Part shown: positions 3,001 through 61,677 of the stretch, piece by piece
Layout: each line of letters begins with the position of its first letter
Position numbering within the stretch: position 1 is the stretch's first letter
Assembly (NCBI GenBank): GCA_964574655.1
Contig: CAZNOH010000001.1
Coordinates: 535,020 to 599,019, forward strand
Reading direction: 5' to 3'
DNA length: 64,000 bases
Source of the DNA: an uncultured Candidatus Saccharibacteria bacterium
Lineage (GTDB): Bacteria; Patescibacteriota; JABMPQ01; JAQVVF01
Notes under the pieces: model-generated
Seen by the model: the letters and a program-made list of their open reading frames with translations, nothing else
What the model was told of the DNA's origin: nothing
Databases searched by the model: none
Translations under genes and position numbers: made by a program

Positions 3001-4155
3001 TTATATTTTTGCTAATTTCTTAATGTCCTTAATTTTGTCTGTTTTTTCCCAAGTAAAATCCTTATCATTTCGACCAAAGTGTCCGTAAGCTGCTGTTTTT
3101 TTATAAATTGGTCGTTTTAATTTCAAAGTTTCGATTATTCCTTCTGGAGTTAAATCAAAAACTTGTCTGATTATTTTTTCAATTTGTTCGCTACTTATTT
3201 TGGAGGTTCCGTGAGTATTGACTAAAATACTGATTGGATCAGCTACTCCGATGACATAAGCAATCTGGATTTCGCAACGATCTGCCAAGCCAGATGCAAC
3301 AATATTTTTGGCAATATATCTGGCCATATAAGAACCTGAACGATCAACCTTTGATGGATCCTTGCCAGAGAAACAACCACCGCCATGGCTTCCATGACCG
3401 CCATATGTATCGACGATAATTTTTCTACCTGTCAAACCACAGTCTGCAGGAGGACCGCCTTTGATAAATTTACCTGTAGCATTGACAAAAAATTTAGTTT
3501 TTCTTGTAAGCCATTTTTCGCAAACTGGTTTAATTACTTTTTCAATGATATCTTTTCTAATTTGAGCAAGCTTGACTTCAGGATTGTGCTGAGCAGCAAT
3601 TACAACAGTATTAATTCTTTTTGGTTTTCCGTCTTCATATTCAATAGCTACTTCGGATTTGCCATCTGGCCTTAGATAGCTAAGTGTTTTATTTTTTCTA
3701 ACTTCTGCTAATTTTTGACTAAGTTTATGAGCTAGAATAATTGGAAGAGGCATTAATTCTGGCGTTTCGTTTGTAGCGTAACCGAACATTAATCCTTGAT
3801 CGCCTGCTCCTTGTTTTTTCTTTTTAGTTTTGTTGACACCAATTGCGATGTCAGGACTTTGTTCATCTATGCTAACAATGATACCGCAGTCATCATGATG
3901 AAAACCGTAATCATGTTTCGTATATCCAATCTCTTTAATTGTTTTTCTAGCAATTTTTGCAATGTCAACATAGGCTTTTGTTGTAATCTCGCCAGCAACA
4001 ACAACTAATCCTGTTGTGACTAAAGTTTCACAACCAACTCTTGAATCTGGATCTTGTTTTAATAATTCATCTAGAATTGAATCTGAAATTTGATCTGCTA
4101 CTTTGTCAGGATGACCCTCTGTTACTGATTCGGATGTAAAGATGTACTTGTTCAT
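3001..4155 (-). CDS. metK: S-adenosylmethionine synthetase
   Basis: N-terminus [20 protein letters not shown] and the [16 protein letters not shown] motif are diagnostic of MetK. Confidence 0.9.
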
Positions 4156-4175: not shown

Positions 4176-5099
4176 TTATTTACTTTTAAACCATTCATAA
4201 GTCATTTTAAGCCCGTCTTCTAATTTTACTTTTGGCTCCCAATTTAATTCTTGTTTAATCTTTGTGTTGTCTATGGCACTTGTTTTTTGATCACCTAGTC
4301 TTGCCTCTCCATGTTTTTCAGAAATACTTTGACCTGAAATTTTGGTTAGATTCTGAAAGATAGCATTAATATCTGTTTGAATTCCTGTGCCGACATTATA
4401 AATATTTTGTGATTTTTCGCTTTTTAAAGCTAGCAGATTTGCGTTTGCAACATCTTTGACAAAAACATAGTCTCTTGTACATTTGCCATCGCCGTTGATT
4501 ATTGGTTGTTCATTATTCACAATCTTTTGGCAAAAAATTGCAACAACTCCTGCTTCACCAAAAGGATCTTGCTTTGGACCATAAACATTGGCATAACGTA
4601 GAATAGTATAGTTTAACTTATTTAGAAAATTGAAGCAATATAAATATTTTTCAACGGCTAATTTTGTGACACCATAAGGAGAGACAGGTTTTGCTTCGTA
4701 ATTCTCTGGAGTTGGTAAAACATCAGCATCGCCATAAAGAGCGCCGCCTGTTGAAGCGAAAATTAGCTTTTTGATATTATGTTTTATTGCTAATTTAAAA
4801 ATATTTATTGATCCTAAAATATTATTTTCAGCATCACTGATTGGATCTTTGACAGATTCTGGGACTGAGGCATGAGCTGCCTGATGGCAAATGTATTCTG
4901 GCTTTTCTTGTTCGAAAATCTTTTCTATTTCATCAAAATTCTTAATATCTGCTTGATAAAATTTTGCTTTTTCATTTAAGTTTTCTTTTTTGCCAGTTGA
5001 TAAATTATCAATAATAACTACCTCATTGTTTTCTTCAATTAGTTTATCAGCAATGTGCGAGCCAATAAACCCCGCACCACCTGTAATTAATATTTTCAT
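4176..5099 (-). CDS. NAD-dependent epimerase/dehydratase (GalE-like UDP-sugar 4-epimerase family)
   Basis: GGAGFIGSH Rossmann motif plus a YxxxK catalytic region (YGVTK); sits inside the sugar-nucleotide cluster. Confidence 0.7.
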   Translation of the reverse strand: MKILITGGAGFIGSHIADKLIEENNEVVIIDNLSTGKKENLNEKAKFYQADIKNFDEIEKIFEQEKPEYICHQAAHASVPESVKDPISDAENNILGSINIFKLAIKHNIKKLIFASTGGALYGDADVLPTPENYEAKPVSPYGVTKLAVEKYLYCFNFLNKLNYTILRYANVYGPKQDPFGEAGVVAIFCQKIVNNEQPIINGDGKCTRDYVFVKDVANANLLALKSEKSQNIYNVGTGIQTDINAIFQNLTKISGQSISEKHGEARLGDQKTSAIDNTKIKQELNWEPKVKLEDGLKMTYEWFKSK

Positions 5100-5140
5100 A
5101 GTTTTATTTTTATGGTTAAAGATTAAAGATAATAGTAATT

Positions 5141-6502
5141 TTATATTTTGACCTTTTTTCCTGTTTCATGCATTTTTCTAATCTTATAGGGCGCACCGAT
5201 TACGTTCTCATATTTATATCCCATTTTTTCAAACATTTCTTTTGAGATTGGCCTTTTCTTGCCATATTCAACGACGTATAAATTTTCAGCGCCATCTTTA
5301 ATTAGTGTTCCGTCTCTAAATAAAACTGGACTGCCTGTTTTTAATTTGTTTAATGTCTGTTGAGATACTGCAACTAAATTATTTGGATCAAATTGATTAT
5401 TATAAATTATATTACTAATGATCGACCTTTTTTGGCTATTTTCTAATAAATATTTTATATTAGATTTTTTTTCATAGACAACAGTACCATCGATTGGAAA
5501 AACTGTGATTTTTGTAATACGTGAGCCTTTTTTGTAGAATTTTTTTCCGTTGGCATCAATTGGTTGAGCGTTTTTTTTATGATATCCGAGTATTTTAAAT
5601 ACTTTTTCTGATTGAAAGCGCCTAATAGTTTGATGACTAATAATAAAATAATTATTGTTTTGATCATACAATAATGTGCCATCTGGAAAAATTGTTGGTT
5701 TGCCGGTTAAATACTTGTCTTGACCTGTTGAAATTGTTATTGCTTGGGTCTCTTTATATTTTGATGCAAACGTAATTCTGTCAGAAAGAAAAGGCTTTTT
5801 CTTTTCATTTTGCAAAATGTAAAGAGTATTGTCGCCTTCTACTTTTAATAAGGTTCCATTTGGATAGTAATTTGCAAACCAATTTGTCCAAATCTGCCAG
5901 AACAGAAAATTGCCGTTGCCTGAGTCATCAATAGTTGCACCTTTGCCTGCTCCAGCATGTGGAGTGTAATTATATAATCCGGCTGTTGCATCATTCTTCG
6001 GAGTGATAGTGTAGCCGTCTGAAGTTGTTTTTGTGACTCCTTTTTGATAGCCATAGTATTCTGGATGATCAATGTACTGTCTGAATTGCCAAGTAGCACT
6101 GTCAATTTGCTTGAAAACGCCTTGATATTTGTATTGGATAGGATTAAATCGATCAAATACAGCATAGCCCATTAAATATTTCTTTTGATAATCTGTTAAA
6201 CTTGAATCAGTGATTGCACTTTGTTCTTTTTGAGCTGTAGCAATTATTAATTTCGGATTTATTTCATATTTTTGCGCTGAATCATAAATAATTTTTGCAA
6301 CGCTTTTGCCATTATATTTTAGCACTGCCAATTCACTTCCTTTTTTAATCAAGAATTTTTGGATTGCTGATTTTGTAAGTGATTTGGAATTTGTATATTC
6401 TTCATCTGTTAAAACATTGTCTGGATTAAAATATGCAGCCATTGAATTATGGGCTGAGATAAAAAAAAGGAATAGTGCGACAATTATTGTTTTTGTTTTC
6501 AT
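5141..6502 (-). CDS. secreted hypothetical protein with repeated (F)PDGTLL beta-strand motifs
   Basis: N-terminal signal peptide (MKTKTIIVALFLFFISAHNSMA); PDGTLLKV / PDGTLLYD / RDGTLIKD repeats; no known catalytic motif. Confidence 0.4.
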   Translation of the reverse strand: MKTKTIIVALFLFFISAHNSMAAYFNPDNVLTDEEYTNSKSLTKSAIQKFLIKKGSELAVLKYNGKSVAKIIYDSAQKYEINPKLIIATAQKEQSAITDSSLTDYQKKYLMGYAVFDRFNPIQYKYQGVFKQIDSATWQFRQYIDHPEYYGYQKGVTKTTSDGYTITPKNDATAGLYNYTPHAGAGKGATIDDSGNGNFLFWQIWTNWFANYYPNGTLLKVEGDNTLYILQNEKKKPFLSDRITFASKYKETQAITISTGQDKYLTGKPTIFPDGTLLYDQNNNYFIISHQTIRRFQSEKVFKILGYHKKNAQPIDANGKKFYKKGSRITKITVFPIDGTVVYEKKSNIKYLLENSQKRSIISNIIYNNQFDPNNLVAVSQQTLNKLKTGSPVLFRDGTLIKDGAENLYVVEYGKKRPISKEMFEKMGYKYENVIGAPYKIRKMHETGKKVKI

Positions 6503-6520
6503 TTTTTATTTAATATAATA

Positions 6521-6616
6521 CAAATAAACGTACGAATAATGCAAATGATACGAATTACGAATCGACGAATTTGCAATTCGCAACATTCGCATTATTCGTA
6601 TTTTCATTCGTATTTT
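6521..6616. repeat. ACGAAT-word palindromic intergenic element
   Basis: Inverted arms built from acgaat/attcgt words around a tcGACGaattt centre; related blocks at about 12160-12200, 24925-24990 and 27995-28065. Confidence 0.5.
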
Positions 6617-6617
6617 G

Positions 6618-7496
6618 TTAAAATAATGTTTTTTCGTTGGCAATTTTTATCAAATACTGGCCATACTGATTTTTGCTAAGAGGTTCAGCTAATTTTAGCA
6701 ATTGTTTTTTATTAATATAGCCATTGCTGAAAGCAATTTCTTCAAGACATGAAACTTTTAGTCCTTGTCTTTTTTCAATAGTTTGAATGAAATTTGATGC
6801 ATCTAAAAGACTTTCATGAGTGCCGGTATCTAACCAAGCGAATCCACGTCCTAGCATTTCTAGTTTTAATTTTTTTTCATTCAAATATAATCTGTTTAAA
6901 TCTGTTATTTCCAACTCACCTCTTGGCGATGGTTTTAATGATTTAGCTTTTTTAACTACGCTATTATCGTAAAAATAAAGTCCGGTAATTGCATAATTTG
7001 ATTTTGGATGTTCTGGTTTTTCTTCAATGCTCAAAACTTTGCCTTTTTTATCAAATTCAGCGATACCATATCTTTCTGGATCGTTAACATAATAGCCAAA
7101 AATTACTGCACCTTTTTTTATGCGAGCTGCTTTTCTCAGCATATCTTGAAAACCGTGACCATAAAATACATTATCGCCTAAAATTAGACTGACACTATCT
7201 TTGCCGATGAATTTTTCACCAATTATAAATGCTTGCGCCAATCCATCTGGAGATGGTTGAATTGCATAAGAAATTTTTAGGCCAAACTTTTTTCCATTGC
7301 CTAATAAATCTTTATAAGTACTGATGTCTCTTGGAGTTGAAATGATTAAAATTTCGCGTATCCCTGACAGCATTAAAATAGACAAAGGGTAATAAATCAT
7401 CGGCTTGTCGTAAATCGGCATGATCTGTTTTGAGATGCTCTGGGTGAGCGGATATAATCTTGTTCCTGATCCTCCTGCTAGAATAATGCCTTTCAT
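6618..7496 (-). CDS. rmlA: glucose-1-phosphate thymidylyltransferase
   Basis: [17 protein letters not shown]-terminus characteristic of RmlA/RfbA. Confidence 0.85.
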
Positions 7497-7518
7497 ATAT
7501 TTAGTGTTATCGCTAAAA

Positions 7519-7650
7519 ATTCAAAACTCTAAATCCTAAATTCTAAATAAACTCAAATTTCCAAAATCAAAATGCTAAACTTGACGATGGTTTTCTTTAT
7601 TTTGAATTTAGAATTTATAATTTATTTAGAGTTTAGGATTTAGGATTTTC
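7519..7650. repeat. long imperfect palindromic element (CTAAAT/ATTTAG-word family) overlapping the rmlD 3' end
   Basis: Left arm aaactctaaatcctaaattctaaataaactcaaatt pairs with right arm aatttagaatttataatttatttagagtttaggatttagg; homologous copies at about 22134-22280 and 42086-42199. Confidence 0.55.
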
Positions 7651-8488: not shown

Positions 8489-8603
8489 TAAAAAACAAAT
8501 TCCAAATTCCAAACAAATTGCAAACCACAAATTACAAAAATTTTAGTAAATAGTTTTGTGTTTTGTAATTTAGAATTTGTTTGGTATTTGTGATTTGTGA
8601 TTT
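8489..8603. repeat. long imperfect palindromic element (CAAATT/ACAAA-word family)
   Basis: Arms aaacaaattccaaattccaaacaaattgcaaacc... and ...ggtatttgtgatttgtgattt; a related copy at about 28960-29088 shares ccaaattacaaaa. Confidence 0.5.
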
Positions 8604-9648: not shown

Positions 9649-9777
9649 AATAAATAATTACCAAGAAACAAGATACAAACAAATTAGAATATTCAATAAT
9701 CAAACCTTTTCGACGGACGAGTTTGGTTATTTTAATTTGAAATTTGTTTGTTTCTTGTCTCTTGGTTATTTATTTTA
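9649..9777. repeat. long palindromic element, CCAAGAAACAAG family
   Basis: ccaagaaacaagatacaaacaaatt ... aatttgaaatttgtttgtttcttgtctcttgg with a central caaac-cttttcgacggacgag-gtttgg mini-hairpin; a half copy lies at 52382-52465. Confidence 0.6.
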
Positions 9778-15886: not shown

Positions 15887-15957
15887 ATCAGTATATGTTT
15901 TTAGATTAACATAATTTTTGAATAAAAAAAAGCAGTATTAAATTGGTAACTGCTTGA

Positions 15958-16024
15958 TGGTGCCCGGAGCGGGATTCGCCCTGCCATGAAGGCAGGGCGC
16001 CCCGCCCTTGTGGCGGGGCGAACC
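15958..16024 (-). pseudogene. partial duplicate of the tRNA-Leu 3' end interrupted by two GC-rich mini-hairpins
   Basis: tggtgcccggagcgggattcg (identical to the tRNA 3' terminus), then ccctgccatgaaggcagggcg and ccccgcccttgtggcggggcg, then aacc. Confidence 0.5.
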
Positions 16025-16066
16025 CAAATTATAAGCAAAAAAAACAGCACATTACTATGCTGTTGA

Positions 16067-16150
16067 TGGTGCCCGGAGCGGGATTCGAACCCGCATGTCT
16101 TGCGACGGAGGATTTTAAGTCCCCTGCGGCTACCTTTTCGCCATCCGGGC
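16067..16150 (-). tRNA. tRNA-Leu (anticodon TAA), long variable arm, CCA encoded
   Basis: Reverse complement folds as a cloverleaf: acceptor GCCCGGA/TCCGGGC, anticodon loop CTTAAAA, long variable arm, T-arm GGTTCGAATCC. Confidence 0.8.
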
Positions 16151-16272
16151 TGAAGGAACAGAAGGTACGCGTTTTTTGTAACATTGCATTATACTACAAT
16201 GGCCAAATTTGTCAATGTTTTGTGCTTACAAATCTCACGAATGCCTTAAGCTCGAATAACACTAATATACGA

Positions 16273-16554
16273 AACTCGGTTTTTTCTTGTTTAAGGCTCG
16301 GCTTTTTACTTAAAGATTTAATGTATTTTTATATTATTTTTGCTAGATAATTATAATTTTGAAACATGTGCAAAGCCGAGCCTTTTAAATCAATGCTCTT
16401 ACTATAAATTAAAAGGTTCGGCCTTATCAAAAATCCATATCTAAATTGCTTAACAAAATTATTCTAAGATATGTATTGTTTTCTTCAATCAAAAGACCGA
16501 ACCTTGTACTAAAAAATTCATTCTTTAACTCTCATTCTTTGAACTCGGTTTTCG
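16273..16554. repeat. nested inverted-repeat pairs bounded by a direct repeat, between tRNA-Leu and the high-GC block
   Basis: AACTCGGTTTT at 16273 and 16542; AAGGCTCGGCTTT (16293) vs AAAGCCGAGCCTT (16372); AAGGTTCGGCCTT (16411) vs AAGaCCGAACCTT (16491). Confidence 0.45.
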
Positions 16555-16691
16555 AAAAAGCATTGGAGTGAGCACAAAAAAAGAGCCCACTGAAAGTGAA
16601 CTCTTGAAGGAACGAACGCTGAAAGAACTGGAATTGTTGGAGAGAAGCCGCACCCGACGCACTTGCGTTTGTCGGATGGGAACTGAAGATT

Positions 16692-17276
16692 CTAGGGGAG
16701 CTTGAGGTAGTGGCCGCCGGAGGGATCCGACATGATCTTGAGACCATCGTAGACGTTGCATCCGACGACGGTCAGCCAGTCTTCGCCACTCCGAGGCCAC
16801 GCGGAATCGACACCAGCAGGAATCATCGCGCAAGCACCGTTGTTCGCCGTCTGCAGAGCGCAGACCGGCTCGACCCCAGGAGGCATGCACCCGAAGGTCC
16901 ACGCACCGAGGCCGACGATGTTGCCGCAGATCTGGCCGTTGTCGATCCACACCTCGCATATATCGGTGTCGGGCGGATTGTTGGGCACGCACTGGGTCTG
17001 GCCCGCCTGGCACTCGTTGCCACCTTCGCCTTCGCCCTCGCAGCCGCAGTCGCACCCCTCGCCCTCGCCTTCGCCACCGTCCACCACGCCACTGTCCGTC
17101 TCACCCTCGCCCTCGTTGCCCTCACCTTCTCCTTCTCCCTCACCTTCACCCTCGCCCTCGACGCCCTCACCCTCGCCCTCGTTGCCGTTGTCCTCCATGT
17201 CCTTCTCGCGCAGGGCGCAGTTCGTGTTGATGATCGTCAGGCCGAACAGGATCCACATCGTCGCGCGCTTCATCAC
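16692..17276 (-). CDS. secreted protein with (EG)n repeat and Cys-rich C-terminal domain, in the high-GC island
   Basis: GGAGGAGG RBS; N-terminal signal peptide; GEGEGEGEG tract; 14 cysteines; GC-rich codon usage unlike the host. Confidence 0.5.
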   Translation of the reverse strand: MMKRATMWILFGLTIINTNCALREKDMEDNGNEGEGEGVEGEGEGEGEGEGEGNEGEGETDSGVVDGGEGEGEGCDCGCEGEGEGGNECQAGQTQCVPNNPPDTDICEVWIDNGQICGNIVGLGAWTFGCMPPGVEPVCALQTANNGACAMIPAGVDSAWPRSGEDWLTVVGCNVYDGLKIMSDPSGGHYLKLP

Positions 17277-17351
17277 AGCACCTCCTCCTCTCTCGTTGAC
17301 TCACCCGAACCGGGCGCTCGACTCCTTGCGAAGCCGAGCGCCCGGACGACT

Positions 17352-18416
17352 CTAGAACCGCACGCCGAAGTTACCGGCGCCGGACTTGATCATCTGCCAC
17401 CCACGCCGGTCCTCCACGTCACCCTTGAGCTCGCCACGCATCTCGTAGATGAACGACCAGCCCTCGAGCTTCGCGAGTTCTCCGACGAATCCCACGCCAC
17501 CACCGACCTCACCGCGACCGAAGTACATGTGGGTGTCGAGGTCGAACGTCCTGCCGATCAGACAGAAGTGTGGCTTGATCCACTGCTTCCAGTCGTACTC
17601 GGCGTTCAGCTCGAACCCGGCAGCACCGACCTCGTTGGCCTTGCCGTACTGCGCGCCCACCCCGATGGTCCAGCTCTCGCTGACCGGGAAGTTGACACGG
17701 AGCATGGCTCCGACGAAGTTGTCGCGCTCGGGGCTCCAGAGGTACTGTCCGACCAGGTCGTAGGTGATGTTCACCTTGGCCTCGCCGTCGTCACCCCTGC
17801 AATCCATCACGTCGCACTTCGTGTCCTTGTTCACGTCCTCATCACCATCACACTTGTAGTTTTCATTGCTGTCCCAGCACTGGACCGACGGCTTGGGCAG
17901 GCAGTCTTCCACGAGCCGGATGATAGCACCGCGCTGCCCTTCCTGGGCTCGCGTGAACATCGTCCCCTCGCGGATTCTGTTGCCGTTGACACCGATCTCC
18001 ATCAGCTTGTTCATCATGTAGCTCGCCCGCGCCCGCGCCCGAACAGCCCTGAGCGGATCCTGACCCCCAGCAGCGCGCACCTCTGCGGTGCCGCCGAACG
18101 GGGTCACGTCCTCCACCCCGCTGACTTCCAGGCATCCGAACTGAGCGGTATCCAGAGTAGCCTTGGCGCCGTTGAGGGCGTCGGTCCACTCCGTCTTCCA
18201 GCTCACGTTCTGCCCGGTCAGGTCGGCGTTGAGGAACGTCCAGATCTTCTTCTGCGCGGTTGCCCGGTCTTCCTCGGCCACGGGGGCCTCGGGAGCCGGC
18301 TGCGCGTAGGCGATCTGTCCCTCCTCGTCGTCCATCCAGAAGTAGTTGTAGGGGTTGATGTTGAAGAAACCGCAGATGAAAACCACCACCATCAGCCAGT
18401 TGATCTTGCGCTTCAT
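17352..18416 (-). CDS. outer-membrane-protein-like protein (OmpA-like segment, Asp-rich Ca-binding-like motif, C-terminal Phe), in the high-GC island
   Basis: RBS GAGGAGG; signal peptide; segment RAVRARARASYMMNKLMEIGVNGNRIR resembles the OmpA C-terminal domain; CDGDEDVNKDTKCDVMDCRGDDGE; alternating beta-strand-like C-terminal half ending GVRF. Confidence 0.45.
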   Translation of the reverse strand: MKRKINWLMVVVFICGFFNINPYNYFWMDDEEGQIAYAQPAPEAPVAEEDRATAQKKIWTFLNADLTGQNVSWKTEWTDALNGAKATLDTAQFGCLEVSGVEDVTPFGGTAEVRAAGGQDPLRAVRARARASYMMNKLMEIGVNGNRIREGTMFTRAQEGQRGAIIRLVEDCLPKPSVQCWDSNENYKCDGDEDVNKDTKCDVMDCRGDDGEAKVNITYDLVGQYLWSPERDNFVGAMLRVNFPVSESWTIGVGAQYGKANEVGAAGFELNAEYDWKQWIKPHFCLIGRTFDLDTHMYFGRGEVGGGVGFVGELAKLEGWSFIYEMRGELKGDVEDRRGWQMIKSGAGNFGVRF

Positions 18417-18674
18417 CGTCTTGCCCTCCTCATCCTCGTTCTCTCGTGTTGTAGGGTCCTAACCCTGTTGTCGGAATCTGTAGAAAGTAACATTGAATAC
18501 TAGCACAATTGAAAAAATTTGTCAACAGGATTTGATGGTTTTACCTTATATAAGCCAAAATTTAACTCTAATTTGTTATAATTATGTTTATTTGGTAAAA
18601 TAGAAGCATTAAGTTATAAGCTATAAGCTATATTTTCTTATTGCTTACAGCTTTTAGCTATAGCTCAAAAAAAC

Positions 18675-21669: not shown

Positions 21670-21849
21670 AATGTTTTTCTAATTTGATTATATCAGTATT
21701 TATCTGCATCCGTCTATAAATTTTTTAACGACGCAGAAAAACGCAAAAGCTAACGCAGAAAGACGCAGAAACCTATTTATATTATTTTATTGCAAATTAA
21801 AAAAGAGCTTTACGCTCTTTTTTATGATTACACAGAAATGGTGTTGAAA

Positions 21850-22133: not shown

Positions 22134-22280
22134 CGAAAACTCTAAATCCTAAACTCTAAACTCTAAACAAACTCAAAATTCCAATATCCAAATTTCAGGA
22201 AACTCCGAAGCCATGCTTTTGAATTTTATATTTTAGTAATTTGTATTTATTTAGAGTTTAGTATTTAGAGTTTAGGATTT
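22134..22280. repeat. long palindromic element, CTAAAT family copy
   Basis: aaactctaaatcctaaactctaaactctaaacaaactcaaaattcc ... atttagagtttagtatttagagtttaggattt. Confidence 0.5.
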
Positions 22281-24915: not shown

Positions 24916-25063
24916 AAATTTTATTTTTTATTTTTAAATATATAATACGAATGACGATACAAATAATGCGAATGTTACGAATTACGAATACGTCAAATAT
25001 TTTTTGTTTAGTTTAGTATAGCATAATTTTTTGTTTTTGGGCAAATAAAAAAGTGAGAGTAAC

Positions 25064-28825: not shown

Positions 28826-28959
28826 CGTGTTTTGTAGTTACAATTTAATATAAACGGCCTACTCGACCTCAAGCCGTTCTATATAAAATATATACGACTT
28901 GTAAGCTTAAATATAGTATACAGTATAATTAATTTTTGTAAATAGATTTTCTTTTAAAA

Positions 28960-29088
28960 GAACAAAAACACAAAAAGACAAAAAAACAAACAAAAACCAA
29001 ATTACAAAATACAAAATCGACAGTTTGTTTTCTTTGTAATTTGGTTTTTGTAATTTGTTTGTTTTTTGTTTTTTTAGGTTTTTATTTT
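28960..29088. repeat. long palindromic element (ACAAA/CAAATT family) overlapping the typA 3' end
   Basis: caaacaaaaaccaaattacaaaatacaaaatcgacagtttgttttctttgtaatttggtttttgtaatttgtttg. Confidence 0.5.
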
Positions 29089-30887
29089 CTGATTTTTCTT
29101 CTTCTATCATTTTCATCAAGAAATTCTTTTCTAATCCTGATATTTTGTGGAGTAACTTCTACTAATTCATCATCGCTAATATATTCCAATGCATCTTCTA
29201 AATCCATGGTCATTGGCGCATTAAAATGGACAGCAACGCCTTCACCCTTGGAACGCATATTTGATAATTTTTTTTCTTTGCAGACATTAACAACTAAATC
29301 ATTTGATCTAGAATTTTGACCAACAACTTGGCCGACATAAACTGTAATGCCAGGTCCTAAAAACAAAGCGCCTCGGTCTTGGACATTAGACAAACCGTAT
29401 AAACATGTTTTACCTTGTTCGTTAGAAATTAATGATCCCTGATCTCTTTCCTTCCAAACGAAATTATCTGGCTGGTATTTGTAAAAACAAGAGTTAATAA
29501 TACCTAATCCACGCGTATCAGTTTTGAATTTGCTTCTATATCCAAACAAGCCTTTTGTTGGAATGGTAAATTCAAGATAAACTATGCCATTATCAATTCT
29601 CATATCAACTAATTCAGCGTGGCGACTGCCAAGCTTTTGAATAATTGTACCTTGATATGTTTCTGGCGCTTCAATGAATATTCTTTCATATGGAGCCATT
29701 TTTTGACCGTCAATTTCTTTGTAAATTACTTGCGGACGAGAGACTTGGAATTCGTAACCTTCTCTCCTCATTCTTTCAATTAAAATGGCCAAGTGAAGTT
29801 CACCGCGTCCTGATACAACCCAATCCCCCTCTGCAGTATCCACAACTCTTAGAGCCATGTCAGTTTTTAATTCTTTGTGTAAACGTTCGGCTATTTGACG
29901 AGAAGTGGTGTATTTTCCTTCATCTCCCGCAAAAGGAGAATCGTTAATGCTAAAAGTCATTTTGATTGTTGGCTCTTCAATATTCAAAACTGGCAATGCT
30001 TTTGGATTAATTGGATCAGCAATAGTTTCGCCAATTTTCACATTTGGAATTCCGCCAACTGCAACGATATCACCAACCTGAGCCTCTTCTGCTTCAACTC
30101 TTTCTAGGCCATCAAAAGTTAATAAAGAAGTAAGCCACGCTTTTTCCTGCTTTCCGTCTCTAGCGATATGCATTACTTCTTGCTTGTTTTTTAATGAACC
30201 ATTGCTAATTCTACCAACAGCAATTCTGCCCTTGAAATTGTCTTCGCTAACTGTTGTTACTAACATTTGCAACGGCGCTTTTTCATCGCCTGAAGGCTCT
30301 TTGATATATTTCAAAATTGCATCAAACAATGGCGTGATATTTTCCATTTTTTCTAGCTCTGGAGTATTGCCTGCCTTACCTTGTTTTGCAGATGCATAGA
30401 TAACTGGAAAATCAGCTGATTCATCATCAGCTCCCAATTCTAAAAATAACTCAAAAGTCTTGTCCAAAACATATGCTGGTCTAGCAAAAGGTTTATCAAT
30501 CTTATTTATAACAACAATGATTTTGTGTTTCATCTCTAATGCCTTTTTTAGCACAAATCTTGTTTGTGGCATCGGACCTTCTTGAGCATCAACTAGCAAC
30601 AAACAGCCATCAGCCATTTTTAAAACTCTTTCTACTTCACCGCCAAAATCAGCGTGTCCAGGAGTGTCAATAATATTAATCTTTGTATCGTTGTAATGAA
30701 TTGAAGCGTTTTTGGAGAAAATAGTAATACCTCTTTCGCGCTCTAGTTCGTTACTATCCATAATACAAGTTTTTTCGGAAACTTCTTTTTTTAGATGCGT
30801 TTTTGATTGACGCAAAAGAGCATCAACTAAAGTTGTTTTACCGTGATCTACGTGAGCAATAATCGCGATATTCCTGATATTTATCAT
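29082..30887 (-). CDS. typA: translational GTPase TypA/BipA
   Basis: IRNIAIIAHVDHGKTTLVD G1 motif, about 600 aa, EF-G-like domain order. Confidence 0.85.
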   Translation of the reverse strand: MINIRNIAIIAHVDHGKTTLVDALLRQSKTHLKKEVSEKTCIMDSNELERERGITIFSKNASIHYNDTKINIIDTPGHADFGGEVERVLKMADGCLLLVDAQEGPMPQTRFVLKKALEMKHKIIVVINKIDKPFARPAYVLDKTFELFLELGADDESADFPVIYASAKQGKAGNTPELEKMENITPLFDAILKYIKEPSGDEKAPLQMLVTTVSEDNFKGRIAVGRISNGSLKNKQEVMHIARDGKQEKAWLTSLLTFDGLERVEAEEAQVGDIVAVGGIPNVKIGETIADPINPKALPVLNIEEPTIKMTFSINDSPFAGDEGKYTTSRQIAERLHKELKTDMALRVVDTAEGDWVVSGRGELHLAILIERMRREGYEFQVSRPQVIYKEIDGQKMAPYERIFIEAPETYQGTIIQKLGSRHAELVDMRIDNGIVYLEFTIPTKGLFGYRSKFKTDTRGLGIINSCFYKYQPDNFVWKERDQGSLISNEQGKTCLYGLSNVQDRGALFLGPGITVYVGQVVGQNSRSNDLVVNVCKEKKLSNMRSKGEGVAVHFNAPMTMDLEDALEYISDDELVEVTPQNIRIRKEFLDENDRRRKIRK

Positions 30888-30983: not shown

Positions 30984-31009
30984 AATTCTACTGAAAATTC
31001 AGTAGAATT
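30984..31009. terminator. 12-bp perfect hairpin AATTCTACTGAA-aa-TTCAGTAGAATT with an upstream A-run (terminator/insulator before the 31132 cassette)
   Basis: Read directly; the T-run follows on the minus strand. Confidence 0.45.
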
Positions 31010-32787: not shown

Positions 32788-32879
32788 TTCTACTTGGCTT
32801 TAGCCAAAGGGTCAAAAAGCTTTAGCTTTCGTCGCCGAGAACTAAAGTTCTTTAACCCCTCAGCTAAAGCTGGGTAGAA
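32788..32879. repeat. REP/MITE-like palindromic element (TTCTACTTGGCTTTAGCCAAAGGG ... CCCTCAGCTAAAGCTGGGTAGAA), copy 1
   Basis: Terminal inverted repeats with GCTTTAGC/GCTAAAGC sub-hairpins; the right end supplies the last 5 codons and the TAG stop of the 32864..34108 gene. Confidence 0.6.
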
Positions 32880-36144: not shown

Positions 36145-36798
36145 ATGATACAAAAAATATTTTCTGCTGATGATTTCGGAAAATTTAAAGATGGAGATAA
36201 CTTAATATTAAAGTCAGGAATTAATCGAATTTCGGTAATGGTAAATCGAGGCACTGATTTTTCTGGATTAAACGGAAAAACGCTAGGACTTCATGCTGAT
36301 TTTGGCGGAGAGAATCTGTCTGATTTTTTTGTACTAATGTTTAAAAGAAAATATGTTAAACAACAACTTGAACAGCAGATTGAAAAATTTGTTAAAATTT
36401 TTGGCAAAAAACCAAATCATTTAGATACACATCGCTATTTGCATTTGCATCCTTTTTTGTTTTCTCTTTTTTTGAATGCTTGCGATAAATACAAAATTCC
36501 ATATTTGCGAATAACTCGAAAAGGCGTTGTTAAAATTAGCAACATGACTTCTTTTATTGTACATAGCATGGTAAAAATGGATAACCTTTTTTATGGCAAG
36601 AGAATTGATAAGTTTGTTGAAGCTGATTACTTTTTATCTCTAGATTGGTATAAAAATTTAGACTTCAAAATTCCTGATGCCATTATTAAAGTCATTTATC
36701 ATCCAGAAAATGATATCAATTTGTTGAAACAATTACAAGATAAATCGCAGAATGACGCAGAAGCTAACGCAGAAAACGCAGAAGACTTTAATAAATAA
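36145..36798 (+). CDS. YdjC/ChbG-family carbohydrate deacetylase-like protein
   Basis: N-terminal SADDFG and HLDTHRYLHLHP (HxDxHxxxHxHP) motifs; the C-terminal 15 aa are encoded by ACGCAGAA repeat DNA. Confidence 0.55.
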   Translation: MIQKIFSADDFGKFKDGDNLILKSGINRISVMVNRGTDFSGLNGKTLGLHADFGGENLSDFFVLMFKRKYVKQQLEQQIEKFVKIFGKKPNHLDTHRYLHLHPFLFSLFLNACDKYKIPYLRITRKGVVKISNMTSFIVHSMVKMDNLFYGKRIDKFVEADYFLSLDWYKNLDFKIPDAIIKVIYHPENDINLLKQLQDKSQNDAEANAENAEDFNK

Positions 36799-41307: not shown

Positions 41308-41410
41308 ATTTCTACTTGGCTTCAACGCAGAATTACGCGGAATTGAACGCGGAATGTGCGGAAAATGCTTCTGCGTTTTTCTGCGTTAGCTTCTGCGTTT
41401 TTTTGCGTAA
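41308..41410. repeat. ACGCAGAA/TTCTGCGTT tandem-word repeat block fused to a partial REP end (ttctacttggctt)
   Basis: ttctacttggcttcaacgcagaattacgcggaattgaacgcggaatgtgcgg...ttctgcgtttttctgcgttagcttctgcgtttttttgcg; related blocks at 21728-21772, 36747-36790 and 44796-44812. Confidence 0.5.
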
Positions 41411-42085: not shown

Positions 42086-42199
42086 AAAATCCTAAATCCA
42101 AAATTCTAAAACCAAATTTTAAGACAATGACGTCTGCTTTAGATTTTTTATTTTGAAATTTGAATTTATTTAGAATTTATAATTTGGGATTTAGAATTT
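42086..42199. repeat. long palindromic element, CTAAAT family copy with an aatGACGtctg centre
   Basis: aaaatcctaaatccaaaattctaaaaccaaatttt ... gaaatttgaatttatttagaatttataatttgggatttagaattt. Confidence 0.5.
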
Positions 42200-49300: not shown

Positions 49301-49412
49301 TTCTACTTGGCTTTAGCCAAAGGGTCGAAGAGCTTTAGCTCTTTTTATGGCTAAAGTTCATTAAAAATTTTGCAATCCAAAATTTTTAATCCCCAGCTAA
49401 AGCTGGGTAGAA
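49301..49412. repeat. REP/MITE-like element copy 2 (full length), immediately upstream of cysS
   Basis: ttctacttggctttagccaaagggtc ... ccccagctaaagctgggtagaa. Confidence 0.6.
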
Positions 49413-52367: not shown

Positions 52368-52381
52368 AAAATTGCTAATTA

Positions 52382-52465
52382 CCAAGAAACAAGAAACAAA
52401 CAAATTAAAAATTAAAATATTCAATAACCAAACTTGACGAGTTTGAATATTATAATTTGGTTATT
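52382..52465. repeat. half copy (left arm plus centre) of the CCAAGAAACAAG palindromic element
   Basis: ccaagaaacaagaaacaaacaaatt ... caaacttgacgagtttg; the matching right arm is absent. Confidence 0.5.
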
Positions 52466-57120: not shown

Positions 57121-57212
57121 GTTTAATTTTAAATTTTGAATTTAAAATTTTAAATTAATTTCGAAATTAGAATTTTAAAATTTATTTGAAATTTATAATT
57201 TAAAATTAGAGA
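57121..57212. repeat. AATTTTAAA-word palindromic intergenic element
   Basis: aattttgaatttaaaattttaaattaatttcgaaattagaattttaaaatttatttgaaatttataatttaaaatt. Confidence 0.45.
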
Positions 57213-58364
57213 TTATTCAACGACTACTCTTTTAATCAGCGGATTAATGCGTGTCACAATTTCATAATTAATTGTATTGATCTTTTTGGCAATTTCATCA
57301 GCTGTAATATATTCTTTGCCTTGCGTTCCTAATAAAACAACTTCATCTTCAGGCTTAATATTTTTAATGTGACTAACATCTACCACAATCATATTCATAC
57401 AAATACGGCCTAATATTTTGCATCTTCTGCCTTTTATTAAAACATTTCCAATACTTGATAATTTGCGATCAAAGCCATCATTATAACCAATTGGCAAAAT
57501 GGCGATTGTCGAATCTTTATGCAAAGTTTCTGTTAGTCCATAGCTAATTGGTGTTCCTGATTTAAGATTTTTAACTTGAGCGACAATTGTCTTCCAAGAT
57601 AATACAGGCTTGAGATCTAAATTAATCTTTTTGTGAGAAGCTGAAACTTTTGTTTCGCTAGATGACCAGAGACCATACATACTAATCCCAAGTCTTACTA
57701 AATCAAAATGTGTTTCTTGAAATAGTATGGTGGCAGCAGAACAAGCCGTGTGTTTTATTTCAATTTTTTGGCCATATTCTTTTTCTGCGATATTTATTAA
57801 TTGCTTAAAATTATTTAATTGTTTTTCAGCATAAGAATGATCAGTCGTATCTTCGATATTCGCAAAATGAGTAGATGCACCTTCTAAAACTAAATAAGGA
57901 TATTTCTTTATTAACTTTATAATTTTTGATAAATCTTTTTCTAGAACTCCTTGCCTTGATGTACCAGTTTCAAGTTTTATATGCAGATATGCTTTCTTTT
58001 TTAGCTTTGAAGAAAGCTCGCCAAGTTTTTTTATTGTCTCTAAATTATAAACTATTTGTCTAAATTCGTTCTTAACTACTTCAGCTAAACGGCTATAAAC
58101 AGTATATCCTAATATAATAATTTGTTTCTTTGTTTTTTTGCTTTCTTGCTTTATTGCGATTGCTTCATCAATTGAATCAACGCCAAACCAGTCAGCTTCA
58201 GAATTTTCTAAAATTTGGGCAGTTTCTAAAAGACCATGGCCATAGGCATTTGATTTAATTATGGCCGCTAGCTTTTTTTCTTGGCCAATTATTTTTCTGA
58301 ATTGCTTTAGATTAAAAATTAAAGCGCTCTGGCTTATTTCAACCCAGGTTTTGTGATTGATCAT
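57213..58364 (-). CDS. alr: alanine racemase
   Basis: PLP-lysine motif AIIKSNAYGHG; length about 380 aa. Confidence 0.8.
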   Translation of the reverse strand: MINHKTWVEISQSALIFNLKQFRKIIGQEKKLAAIIKSNAYGHGLLETAQILENSEADWFGVDSIDEAIAIKQESKKTKKQIIILGYTVYSRLAEVVKNEFRQIVYNLETIKKLGELSSKLKKKAYLHIKLETGTSRQGVLEKDLSKIIKLIKKYPYLVLEGASTHFANIEDTTDHSYAEKQLNNFKQLINIAEKEYGQKIEIKHTACSAATILFQETHFDLVRLGISMYGLWSSSETKVSASHKKINLDLKPVLSWKTIVAQVKNLKSGTPISYGLTETLHKDSTIAILPIGYNDGFDRKLSSIGNVLIKGRRCKILGRICMNMIVVDVSHIKNIKPEDEVVLLGTQGKEYITADEIAKKINTINYEIVTRINPLIKRVVVE

Positions 58365-59769: not shown

Positions 59770-60165
59770 TTATTCTTTTACTTCTTCCATTGCGGTATCT
59801 AATTTTAAGTCCGTAATCAGTCCTGGAAGTTCTTCTAAGAATTCTTTGTCCTCGCTATGAAAGACAATTCCGCCGGCTTTTTCTAATCTTTCTGTATTTG
59901 GATGTTTATAGTCCCATTCGATTCCCTCTAATTCAATATCTTTTGGAACCCAAAGTCGTCCTCTCCTTTCTCTGCCTTCAATCGATTTTAGTTCATCTTT
60001 TATATAGATAGGAACGCGTAACCATTCCTTTTTTGTTACTTGTGCCTGCTCATCTCCTGTAAGCCACCAAATCAGTAAGTTTTTTGGTAATTCTTTATCT
60101 TCTATGGAAAATCCTTCTTCTTCATCTAAGTTAGCTGGATTTTCTCCTTCTTGTTCTATATTCAT
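59770..60165 (-). CDS. hypothetical acidic protein
   Basis: ORF track only. Confidence 0.4.
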   Translation of the reverse strand: MNIEQEGENPANLDEEEGFSIEDKELPKNLLIWWLTGDEQAQVTKKEWLRVPIYIKDELKSIEGRERRGRLWVPKDIELEGIEWDYKHPNTERLEKAGGIVFHSEDKEFLEELPGLITDLKLDTAMEEVKE

Positions 60166-60175
60166 ACTGTGACTA

Positions 60176-60424
60176 TTAATTTAAAAGATTAATTATGCTT
60201 AATTCTTTGGAAATTAATTTAATTGCCTGATTAACTTTTTCTTTTTTTGTTTTTAATAATAACAAGGATTCTTTTTCATCAACAATCTTTCCATCCCACC
60301 AATAGATTGAATTGACCTTTTCTATTATATTAACACAAATTGCTAATTTTTGCTCGATCAATTTCCTGCCAATTTTTCTGGCTTCTTCTAAATTCTTGCA
60401 GGTTGTGTGGATATCGTAGAACAT
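60176..60424 (-). CDS. CutA1-like divalent-cation-tolerance protein, short (N-terminus possibly truncated by the adjacent repeat element)
   Basis: LAICVNIIEKVNSIYWWDGKIVDEKESLLLLKT matches the CutA core (ACvN...S.Y.W.G.i..e.E..L.lKT); the REP-like element abuts the start codon. Confidence 0.45.
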   Translation of the reverse strand: MFYDIHTTCKNLEEARKIGRKLIEQKLAICVNIIEKVNSIYWWDGKIVDEKESLLLLKTKKEKVNQAIKLISKELSIINLLN

Positions 60425-60434
60425 AGATTAGAGA

Positions 60435-60533
60435 TTCTACCTGGCTTTAGCCAGGGGGTTGGTGTGCTTTAGCTCTGGCCGTCGTCGACTTAGGACTAAA
60501 GTCCTTCGACCCTTTGGCTAAAGCCAAGTAGAA
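60435..60533. repeat. REP/MITE-like element copy 3 with left-type terminus at both ends
   Basis: ttctacctggctttagccaggggg ... gaccctttggctaaagccaagtagaa. Confidence 0.6.
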
Positions 60534-60536
60534 GTT

Positions 60537-61136
60537 CTACACGCCTTTAGGCAATGAGTTCGAAAATTTAGTGTTTGGTTTGATATTTGCAAGATCCTTA
60601 ATATTAATAAATCCTTTATTATCTTCTGATAAATCGATTACTGATCTAACTAATTCATGCATTTCTTTATCACTATATTTTTTTGCATAATAACCATAAC
60701 TTGAAAATTTGTTATTTTTTAATTCTTCAAAAGTGCTGACTTCTTTATGCTTTAATAAATTGCCAATAATATAACCAGTAACTCGCCAATCCATGATCTC
60801 GGATGCAATTTGTAAAAGTTTAGTACTCTGCCAAAGCTGTGTTTCTTTTATTACGTGCCAATATTTTTTCTTATACAAGAAAGATGTACCACCATGAAGA
60901 ATCTGTTTGATTTTTGGAATTAATAATCCATTCTTGAGATAAAATTTAATGTGAAAATGATTAATTGCGATGCTATAAGCGCTTATTTTAACATTATATT
61001 TAACTCTTAGTTTTTTGAATTGGTCATAAATGATTTGCTTTTGTTCTGGTTCGCTAAAATATGGAGTGTGTAAAAATGTGGAGGTTGTTAAAAAGTATAT
61101 GCAATCATTTGGCCAATATTGTTTTTGTTTGAACAT
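60537..61136 (-). CDS. putative HuH (Y1) transposase, RAYT-like, flanked by REP-like elements
   Basis: HuH-like motif AINHFHIKF, conserved downstream Tyr candidates, about 200 aa; flanked within 20 bp on both sides by the GCTTTAGC palindromic elements. Confidence 0.45.
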   Translation of the reverse strand: MFKQKQYWPNDCIYFLTTSTFLHTPYFSEPEQKQIIYDQFKKLRVKYNVKISAYSIAINHFHIKFYLKNGLLIPKIKQILHGGTSFLYKKKYWHVIKETQLWQSTKLLQIASEIMDWRVTGYIIGNLLKHKEVSTFEELKNNKFSSYGYYAKKYSDKEMHELVRSVIDLSEDNKGFINIKDLANIKPNTKFSNSLPKGV

Positions 61137-61151
61137 CTTTATAGAGAACTA

Positions 61152-61263
61152 GTGCTAAAGCCCATTAAAAATTTTGTAATCCAAAATTTTTAATCCCCTC
61201 AGCTAAAGCTGGGTAGAATATTTCTACCTGGCTTTAGCCAAGGGGTGTTGGAGCTTTAGCTCC
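61152..61263. repeat. REP/MITE-like element copy 4, circularly permuted (right half - tat - left half)
   Basis: gtgctaaagccc...cagctaaagctgggtagaa + tat + ttctacctggctttagccaaggggtgttggagctttagctcc. Confidence 0.55.
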
Positions 61264-61269
61264 ACGTTG

Positions 61270-61677
61270 TTAAAGCCGAAGTTTCAATTTTGATGATTTA
61301 TATTTTTCTGGTTTAAATGATTTTAATCTAACGGTTTTAGTTTTAAAGCCAAATTCTTTAATCTTGTCCTCTAATTCTTCTGTGTATGAATTTTGATCAT
61401 AGCCTAAAGCGATAATATCTGGTTTTTCCTGCTTAACTATCTTGTACGGATCATCTAAATTGCCTAGCTTTGCTTCATCAACAATTTTCTGATTTTTAAC
61501 ATTTGCTAATCTTTCTTTTTCATTAAATAATGTGCGATGTTTTTTGATCGCGCTAACTGTTTGATCTCGAGCAACGATTACTGTTAGATTATCGCCTAAT
61601 TTCTTTGCTTGCTTGAAAAAATCCAGATGGCCTGGATGCAAAAGATCAAATGTGCCGAAAATTAAAACTTTTTTCAT
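61270..61677 (-). CDS. cytidylyltransferase-like nucleotidyltransferase (HIGH-type; FAD synthetase RibL / GCT-like)
   Basis: IFGTFDLLHPGHLDFF (HxGH nucleotidyltransferase motif), about 135 aa. Confidence 0.6.
   Translation of the reverse strand: MKKVLIFGTFDLLHPGHLDFFKQAKKLGDNLTVIVARDQTVSAIKKHRTLFNEKERLANVKNQKIVDEAKLGNLDDPYKIVKQEKPDIIALGYDQNSYTEELEDKIKEFGFKTKTVRLKSFKPEKYKSSKLKLRL

Follow-up and report, generated by a model that had tools for sequence, protein, structure and literature searches.

The DNA analyzed here is a 64-kb stretch (the window) of contig CAZNOH010000001.1 from an uncultured Candidatus Saccharibacteria bacterium, with a G+C content of about 32%. It carries a gene for a 199-aa protein that resembles the RAYTs (tyrosine transposases linked to repetitive extragenic palindromes, REPs), a group of HuH (histidine-hydrophobic-histidine) enzymes with a single catalytic tyrosine (Y1). 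The gene is bracketed by inverted copies of a short hairpin repeat, termed the arm, which also occurs between genes elsewhere in the window, where two inverted arms form doublets resembling REPINs (REP doublets forming hairpins). All element and gene counts given below are counts within this window. The features are as follows:

60537-61136, minus strand: RAYT-like HuH/Y1 gene, 199 aa, containing NHFHIKF
60435-60533: element C, a complete 99-bp REPIN-like doublet between the RAYT-like stop and the cutA start
60535-60554, minus strand: degenerate 3′ arm TTGCCTAAAGGCGTGTAGAA (gene orientation), inside the gene end, encoding ...LPKGV, with its TAG as the stop codon
61150-61218, minus strand: the gene's 5′ arm, consisting of TTCTACCCAGCTTTAGCTGAGGGG, a nested AT-rich hairpin (61164-61194) and then a degenerate second hairpin, GGGCTTTAGCAC
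61222-61269: half-element, made of the arm TTCTACCTGGCTTTAGCCAAGGGG and the second hairpin GGAGCTTTAGCTCC
49301-49412: element B, a complete 112-bp doublet in the spacer between a SLOG-family gene and cysS
32788-32879: element A, a complete 92-bp doublet in the flavoprotein/FKBP spacer
41310-41322, plus strand: arm fragment TTCTACTTGGCTT, 13 nt, abutting an unrelated palindromic repeat of the CGCAGAA type

Element C lies 3 nt from the RAYT-like stop codon and the 5′ arm lies 14 nt from the ATG, in agreement with an earlier note on this DNA, which had described a 199-aa protein with the NHFHIKF motif bracketed within 20 bp on both sides. Read in frame, the 3′ arm gives TTG CCT AAA GGC GTG TAG. 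On the 5′ side, the half-element is joined tail-to-head to the gene's own arm through the trinucleotide TAT (61219-61221) and reaches the stop codon of a cytidylyltransferase-like gene. This segment (61150-61263) had been taken for a fourth, circularly permuted copy of the element; the order right half-TAT-left half is correct as sequence, but it represents two abutting elements rather than a permuted copy. The same GTAGAA/TTCTAC junction, without spacer, is common to three homologous loci (L123, L124 and L127) and is therefore old and stable; a circular permutation or excision intermediate is ruled out because the junction is kept in these relatives. Comparable tail-to-head junctions, their ends separated by 1 to 16 nt, are found at other homologue loci.

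By its predicted fold and its motifs, the 199-aa protein is an HuH/Y1 enzyme. It passes the Pfam model Y1_Tnp marginally (24.1 bits against a cut-off of 23), and its best NCBIfam model is REP_Tyr_transpos (36.4 bits, E = 4e-9), followed by the IS200 model at 17.5 bits; the comparison with IS200/IS605 TnpA and RAYT profiles proposed in the earlier note thus places the RAYT model above the IS200 model, yet below the RAYT cut-off. In an alignment of 34 homologues, the HuH motif (N59-H60-F-H62, generally NH[YF]H) contains an invariant H60 and an H62 present in at least 90% of the sequences, W102 is invariant and Q103 nearly so, and the putative catalytic Y122, located in GYIIGNLLKH, is invariant together with N126. 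The residue after N126 is an invariant leucine, giving a Y-x3-N-L motif rather than the Y-x3-N-P of class 2, and the C-terminal extension of about 75 aa contains an invariant E171. The AlphaFold2 model, with a mean predicted local distance difference test (pLDDT) value of 89.6, places Y122 on a predicted helix (113-124) past a strand (102-110). The best Foldseek match in the PDB is 4ER8, the Escherichia coli TnpA_REP with its REP hairpin (E = 1.3e-7), followed by the TnpA structures of ISDra2, IS608 and IS200. The relationship to TnpA_REP was found by fold search because sequence searches of the PDB, with the protein or with the 34-sequence profile, gave no Y1 relative and returned only designed helical repeats, which are spurious. 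Support for the HuH/Y1 fold, on which the earlier note had made its reading depend, thus comes from the 4ER8 match and from Pfam Y1_Tnp.

Homologous proteins number 184 at E ≤ 1e-3, and the named ones come almost entirely from metagenome-assembled genomes (MAGs) of Patescibacteria/Parcubacteria type; some family members are already annotated as 'transposase' or 'RayT' by pipelines. When 1.84 billion cluster representatives were searched exhaustively with a profile, 312 relatives were recovered at E ≤ 1e-3, the count falling to only 29 at E ≤ 1e-30, which indicates a compact family distant from the bulk of Y1 proteins. Hardly any of the remoter representatives that were looked up bore a taxonomic name. 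The window contains one copy of the gene, and no tnpB is present among its open reading frames (ORFs).

The repeat is strongly enriched in the window. With 2.9 occurrences expected, the octamer GCTTTAGC is present 20 times, a count reached in 0 of 100 shuffles, and the 18-nt arm pattern TTCTACYYRGCTTTAGCY occurs eight times against 0.01 expected, all eight matches being exact in a scan that tolerated up to two mismatches. These arms pair into the three complete, intergenic palindromic elements A, B and C (92-112 bp), with further arms outside complete elements at 61201-61218 and 61222-61239. The positions and sequences that the earlier note gave for elements A and B and for the arm fragment are correct. 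Each arm starts with TTCTAC, and continues with a 5-6-bp stem closed by a TTTA loop and with GGG(T); a second small hairpin, again with this loop, usually comes next. The consensus, about 24 nt long, is 5′-TTCTA-[C N4 C-TTTA-G N4 (bulged A) G]-GG(T). Two inverted arms form a palindromic doublet of about 90-110 bp that is sited between genes and has the polarity 5′-TTCTAC...GTAGAA-3′; in element C, each of the two arms carries its second hairpin. An origin of the repeats as chance or low-complexity matches in an AT-rich genome, with an ORF that is not a gene, might be suggested by the generally repeat-rich and AT-rich intergenic DNA of the window; it is refuted by the eight arms against 0.01 expected, by the 184 homologues and by the confident fold, and its probability is negligible.

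The association between gene and arm extends to other genomes. The flanks of homologues with 42-82% protein identity were read at 12 loci (L017, L033, L040, L060, L061, L071, L092, L122, L123/L124, L127, L128 and L129). Read in gene orientation, all 12 carry a TTCTAC arm and its second hairpin 30-50 nt upstream of the ATG, and an inverted arm ending in ...GTAGAA lies at or overlaps the stop codon, again in 12 of 12. In many homologues the 3′ arm, CCC TCG GCT AAA GCC GGG TAG, is translated as a C-terminal PSAKAG followed by the stop. A paralogue from the same sample (P0098, at L122), 51% identical, is flanked by its own TTCTAC-tagged hairpins with CATG loops, which fits one enzyme with one repeat family; the 64-kb window holds no copy of this CATG-loop hairpin.

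Comparison with related genomes indicates that the gene stays in place while the repeats move. The order Ham1, cytidylyltransferase-like (CTP_transf) gene, Y1 gene and CutA is kept in L123 and L124, where the protein is 82% identical, and in L127 (77%). In L123 and L124 the stop codon of the gene is followed after 16 nt by the ATG of cutA, element C being absent, and in L127 a different element occupies the spacer between the gene and cutA. Element A is likewise absent from the flavoprotein-FKBP spacer of L131 and L132 (83% identical flavoprotein), which contains a small opposite-strand ORF instead. The repeats thus move, since elements A and C are missing at matching sites while the gene remains syntenic. 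A syntenic single gene with a changing repeat population is the criterion for a RAYT/REPIN pair (Bertels et al.; Quentin et al., PMC6006769), and the lone, syntenic, diverging gene with changing repeats found here is accordingly a RAYT/REPIN signature rather than that of an insertion sequence.

The same comparison bears on the idea that the arm-gene-arm unit is an autonomous IS200/IS605-like insertion sequence, with elements A, B and C as gene-less derivatives of the kind of miniature inverted-repeat or palindrome-associated transposable elements (MITE/PATE-like). The gene is indeed flanked by inverted arms, and some 70 nt of element B, the nested AT hairpin among them, match the 5′ flank of the gene (93% over 45 nt), as expected after internal deletion of a gene-bearing element. 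An insertion sequence is nevertheless unlikely, as the neighbors CTP_transf and CutA are kept where the protein is only 77-82% identical, the window holds one gene copy, and the same-sample paralogue, at 51% identity, has a different hairpin. The ends are inverted repeats, tnpB is absent from the window, the Y motif contains N rather than the Q of IS200 (Table 1, PMC6006769), and the gene's own 3′ arm is degenerate. These observations describe REPIN/RAYT behavior and not insertion-sequence behavior.

The elements also affect neighboring genes, in a way that is real but small: the final codons of the flavoprotein gene and its stop are overwritten by an arm. The flavoprotein in the window ends in ...GESVVSTQL*, while those of L131 and L132 end in ...GESVSK*, so the comparison of C-termini with relatives lacking the element, suggested in the earlier note, does reveal a difference, the tail being written by the arm of element A. 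This arm had been credited with the last five codons and the stop; it supplies the last four full codons (S-T-Q-L), 2 nt of the preceding one, and the TAG. The cutA gene beside element C is a different case. It encodes 82 aa, compared with 103 aa in relatives, and residues 1-73 align with that longer protein and with Pfam positions 3-72 of 99. The shortened cutA reported next to element C is therefore genuine, but the shortening is C-terminal and distal to the element: when the N-terminus is compared with relatives, as had been proposed, the start aligns and the loss falls at the C-terminal end. Truncation of cutA by element C was rejected, the lost end being on the side away from it, and the loss is a local rearrangement independent of the repeats. 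In that region (59770-60424), cutA lacks its last ~30 codons, and the 411-aa bactofilin/DUF8173 gene of the relatives is replaced by an unrelated 131-aa ORF without a Pfam match.

The hairpins themselves appear to be conserved as structures. Single-strand folding of the elements exceeds that of shuffled controls (z from -3.2 to -6.6), and 148 distinct arms were analyzed among the matches listed from MAGs. The second hairpin, which is free of the search pattern, pairs perfectly over 4 bp or more around TT[TC]A in 82 of the 148 arms listed, compared with 1 of 2960 shuffles, and its stems comprise 49 different sequences among these matches. In the first hairpin, two stem positions outside the search pattern covary with their partners in the listed arms (Fisher p = 2.6e-10 and 4.6e-5), and the stem repeatedly shows an unpaired A on its 3′ side. 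Within one element, the stems of the two arms can differ (TTGGC/GCCAA and CCAGC/GCTGG), each being self-complementary, which means that the local hairpin is conserved and not only the pairing between arms. The compensatory changes between TTGGC-TTTA-GCCAA and CCAGC-TTTA-GCTGG pointed out in the earlier note are thus real, and the covariation is confirmed. Judged by these sequence patterns, the hairpins are selected as structures.

Such conservation could also be read as the mark of host RNA or DNA signals, namely mRNA-stabilizing hairpins, terminators or protein-binding sites, with the Y1 gene nearby only by chance. The complete elements all lie between co-directional genes and would be co-transcribed, their hairpin structures are strongly conserved, and E. 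coli REPs have secondary roles of this kind (PMC3733652). A terminator/promoter scan of the elements found nothing, including no T-tract terminator signature, and the terminator idea was therefore dropped. At the gathering cut-off, Rfam detected only two tRNAs in the whole window and no family on the elements, and at E ≤ 1 it gave only a chance Xist match within 60400-61300. As the arm accompanies the Y1 gene at all 12 homologue loci in different genomes, and the elements are absent at matching sites of close relatives, a host-signal origin is very improbable; a secondary host role of the palindromes is possible, but it cannot be the whole explanation.

Among characterized systems, the REPtron of E. 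coli (TnpA_REP, subclass 2.2, 4ER8) offers the best structural match, with the HuH/Y1 fold. Both arrangements place the gene between inverted copies of a hairpin repeat with further copies in other intergenic spacers (here those of the 64-kb window), both hairpins have an unpaired base and a conserved unpaired foot tag, and both enzymes have a C-terminal extension past the catalytic tyrosine and a low gene copy number (here one in the window). The differences are considerable: the proteins share 16% identity, a relationship undetectable by sequence search; the 5′ foot tag is TTCTA(C) here and GTAG in E. coli, the GTAG here being confined to the opposite strand, 3′ of the hairpin; there are two TTTA-loop hairpins in each arm; the motif is Y-x3-N-L instead of Y-x3-N-P; the extension measures about 75 aa instead of about 25 aa; and the 3′ arm lies inside the coding sequence. 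The REPIN-RAYT systems of Pseudomonas (Bertels and Rainey; subclass 2.5) share with the present one a mobile unit consisting of an inverted REP doublet that forms a long hairpin, a vertically inherited single-copy RAYT (here single in the 64-kb window) with a changing REPIN population, and a separate repeat family for each paralogue. They belong to another phylum, whereas the present system resides in a very small genome with a handful of copies in 64 kb, and their REPINs are lineage-specific, unlike the arm core here, which is common to many genomes and even to MAGs labeled as other phyla.

Subclass 2.4 of the TnpA_Y1 proteins (Cyanobacteria, Bacteroidetes and others) is characterized by NH[IFV]H and WQ motifs, a median length of 194 aa and REPs overlapping their own coding sequence (Table 1, PMC6006769). 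Compared by description only (Quentin et al. 2018), it resembles the present family in motifs, length and the overlap between the REP and the gene's coding sequence, but its Y motif is YIxNNP and its REPs have a 'double foot', 5′-GT[AG]G...C[TC]AC-3′, opposite in polarity to the doublets described here. With the IS200/IS605 TnpA proteins (IS608, ISDra2), the protein has in common the HuH/Y1 catalytic core and small imperfect hairpins on single-stranded DNA as targets; the multiple copies, the ends that are not inverted repeats, the Y-x3-Q motif and the frequent tnpB of those elements do not apply here. The TIRYT/TIRtron group, RAYT-like transposases associated with terminal inverted repeats (Di Nocera et al. 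2013), likewise combines such a gene with non-GTAG terminal inverted repeats and moderately abundant repeat families, but belongs mostly to subclass 2.1, with a C-terminal helix-turn-helix and GGGG[AT][CG]A[CG] repeats (PMC6006769), neither of which is seen here.

Taken with the features shared with RAYTs (the fold, the HuH, WQ and Y motifs, the REPtron layout, doublets, low copy number in the window, synteny and a paralogue-specific repeat), the evidence makes it probable that the locus is a REPIN-RAYT-type system, of a divergent subclass common in Patescibacteria. The core of the earlier reading, a RAYT-like HuH gene with REP-like palindromes elsewhere, is thus upheld by fold, motifs, the 12 homologue loci, covariation and mobility. 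Its description as a 'classic' REP-RAYT arrangement does not hold, given the missing 5′ GTAG foot, the Y-x3-N-L motif and a score of 36 bits against a cut-off of 80. Several points weigh against the REPIN-RAYT assignment. The canonical 5′ GTAG foot is absent on every strand, 5′ GT[AG]G at the hairpin foot being the defining REP tag (PMC3479197), although atypical REPs without GTAG have been described for subclasses 2.6 and 3. The REP_Tyr_transpos score of 36.4 bits is below the NCBIfam cut-off of 80, and the relative in the PDB is undetectable by sequence search with either the protein or the 34-sequence profile. Copy numbers of both repeat and gene come from a 64-kb portion of the genome. The flanks are also rearranged at the two matching sites without elements, so that exact insertion boundaries and any target duplication are indefinable there, and the absence of elements in relatives could in principle reflect loss rather than gain. 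Finally, the binding and cleavage put forward for the enzyme are proposed by analogy.

In the proposed mechanism, the enzyme would act as an HuH/Y1 endonuclease/ligase for single-stranded DNA, with the ~24-nt arm as its cognate DNA. By analogy with the E. coli enzyme (PMC3479197), it would bind the arm folded in single-stranded DNA and recognize the unpaired foot tag together with the stem irregularity. It may then cut at or beside the TTCTAC/GTAGAA boundary, forming a 5′-phosphotyrosine on Y122 with a metal held by H60 and H62. The TTCTAC tag includes CT, the cleavage dinucleotide of E. coli TnpA_REP; use of this CT for cleavage here is speculation drawn from that enzyme. Rejoining of the strands would move whole doublets, often to sites next to a GTAGAA end already in place; this would account for the GTAGAA(0-16 nt)TTCTAC junctions. 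The ~75-aa extension with E171 may restrain activity, in the manner of the auto-inhibitory C-terminal tail with E161 in E. coli TnpA_REP.

More tentatively, the family might form an undescribed RAYT subclass with its own REP type, characteristic of Patescibacteria and with an arm core also present in MAGs labeled as other phyla; we consider this possible without favoring it. The traits proposed for this subclass are a 5′-TTCTAC foot, opposite in polarity to the canonical one, two TTTA-loop hairpins per arm, a 3′ REP within the transposase reading frame that writes the ...PSAKAG* tail and the stop, and an arm core that is not lineage-specific but hardly varies even between very distant genomes. 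Related MAGs contain arm-pattern matches in several separate loci each, and the core TTCTACCCGGCTTTAGCCGAGGGT is near-constant across many Patescibacteria MAGs, both among the matches listed.

To our knowledge, research on REP/REPIN-RAYT systems has dealt almost exclusively with Proteobacteria and to some extent with Cyanobacteria and Bacteroidetes, and our literature search found no paper on REP/RAYT in Patescibacteria. The locus apparently represents a bacterial repeat system of known type in a divergent form not described before, carried by a tiny genome of the Patescibacteria. If this is true, a resident pair of repeat and enzyme is retained even in highly reduced genomes of ~0.65 Mb, and a REP whose tag polarity and loop are unlike the E. 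coli model provides a natural test of foot reading and cleavage-site choice by Y1 enzymes. The near-constancy of the arm core, unusual among REPs, allows the system to be traced easily, and the system might serve as a marker of strain-level rearrangements in metagenomes. The arm repeats may also add to breaks in short-read contigs.

The core TTCTACCCGGCTTTAGCCGAGGGT is also repeated, among the matches listed, in MAGs labeled Gemmatimonadota (one MAG: L004, L019, L022, L025, L028, L031, L041, L043, L049, L053, L056, L070, L072, L078, L098, L110, L111 and L118), Zixibacteria (L008, L024, L065, L076, L080, L104 and L107) and Gammaproteobacteria (L013 and L099). The arm core thus recurs, together with the second CTTTAG hairpin, in MAGs of other, G+C-richer phyla. 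A profile search of all ORFs in 8-kb pieces of these Gemmatimonadota, Zixibacteria and Gammaproteobacteria MAGs found no member of the RAYT-like family. Horizontal spread, an ancient system or mis-binning of contigs could account for this occurrence.

Two of the homologue neighborhoods deserve mention. In L040 and L071, from different Patescibacteria MAGs, the homologue lies directly downstream of a gene with a shared conserved 3′ end, a second conserved setting unlike that of the window; the C-terminus of this upstream gene presumably resembles GlmS. Downstream of the 62%-identical homologue in L128, unrelated sequence of about 550 nt is bounded by a TTCTAC arm and an inverted GTAGAA arm (4677-5233); this may be a doublet carrying an insert, and three tandem partial arms directly precede it.

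Other repeats populate the intergenic DNA. An AT-rich 31-nt hairpin module, ATTAAAAATTTTGYAATCCAAAATTTTTAAT, is present in element B (49360-49390) and in the gene's 5′ arm (61164-61194), as well as in the different element of L127 (about 3720-3770), and is absent from the matching arm of L123; its behavior is that of a small independent insert. At 30986-31007, a perfect 22-nt palindrome, TTCTACTGAAAATTCAGTAGAA, has TTCTAC/GTAGAA ends without CTTTAG hairpins. A CGCAGAA-rich repeat family occupies 21731-21777, 36746-36775 and 41326-41408, one copy being palindromic. At least three other families of AT-rich intergenic palindromes, with arms of 50-60 nt, recur across the window (6509-6622, 7517-7650, 8490-8603, 9656-9770, 22137-22280, 24919-24994, 28958-29097, 42086-42199, 52369-52434 and 57127-57225); these are devoid of the TTCTAC tag, and no associated gene was seen.

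A ~2-kb island at 15954-18500 has a G+C content of 55%, compared with 32% for the genome, and adjoins a tRNA gene (16070-16150, minus strand). A 25-nt exact direct repeat (15954-15978 and 16063-16087) overlaps this tRNA gene at its low-coordinate end. The island contains two minus-strand genes, one encoding 194 aa with (EG)n repeats (16692-17276) and one encoding 354 aa (17352-18416). The island looks like a small foreign insertion at the tRNA.

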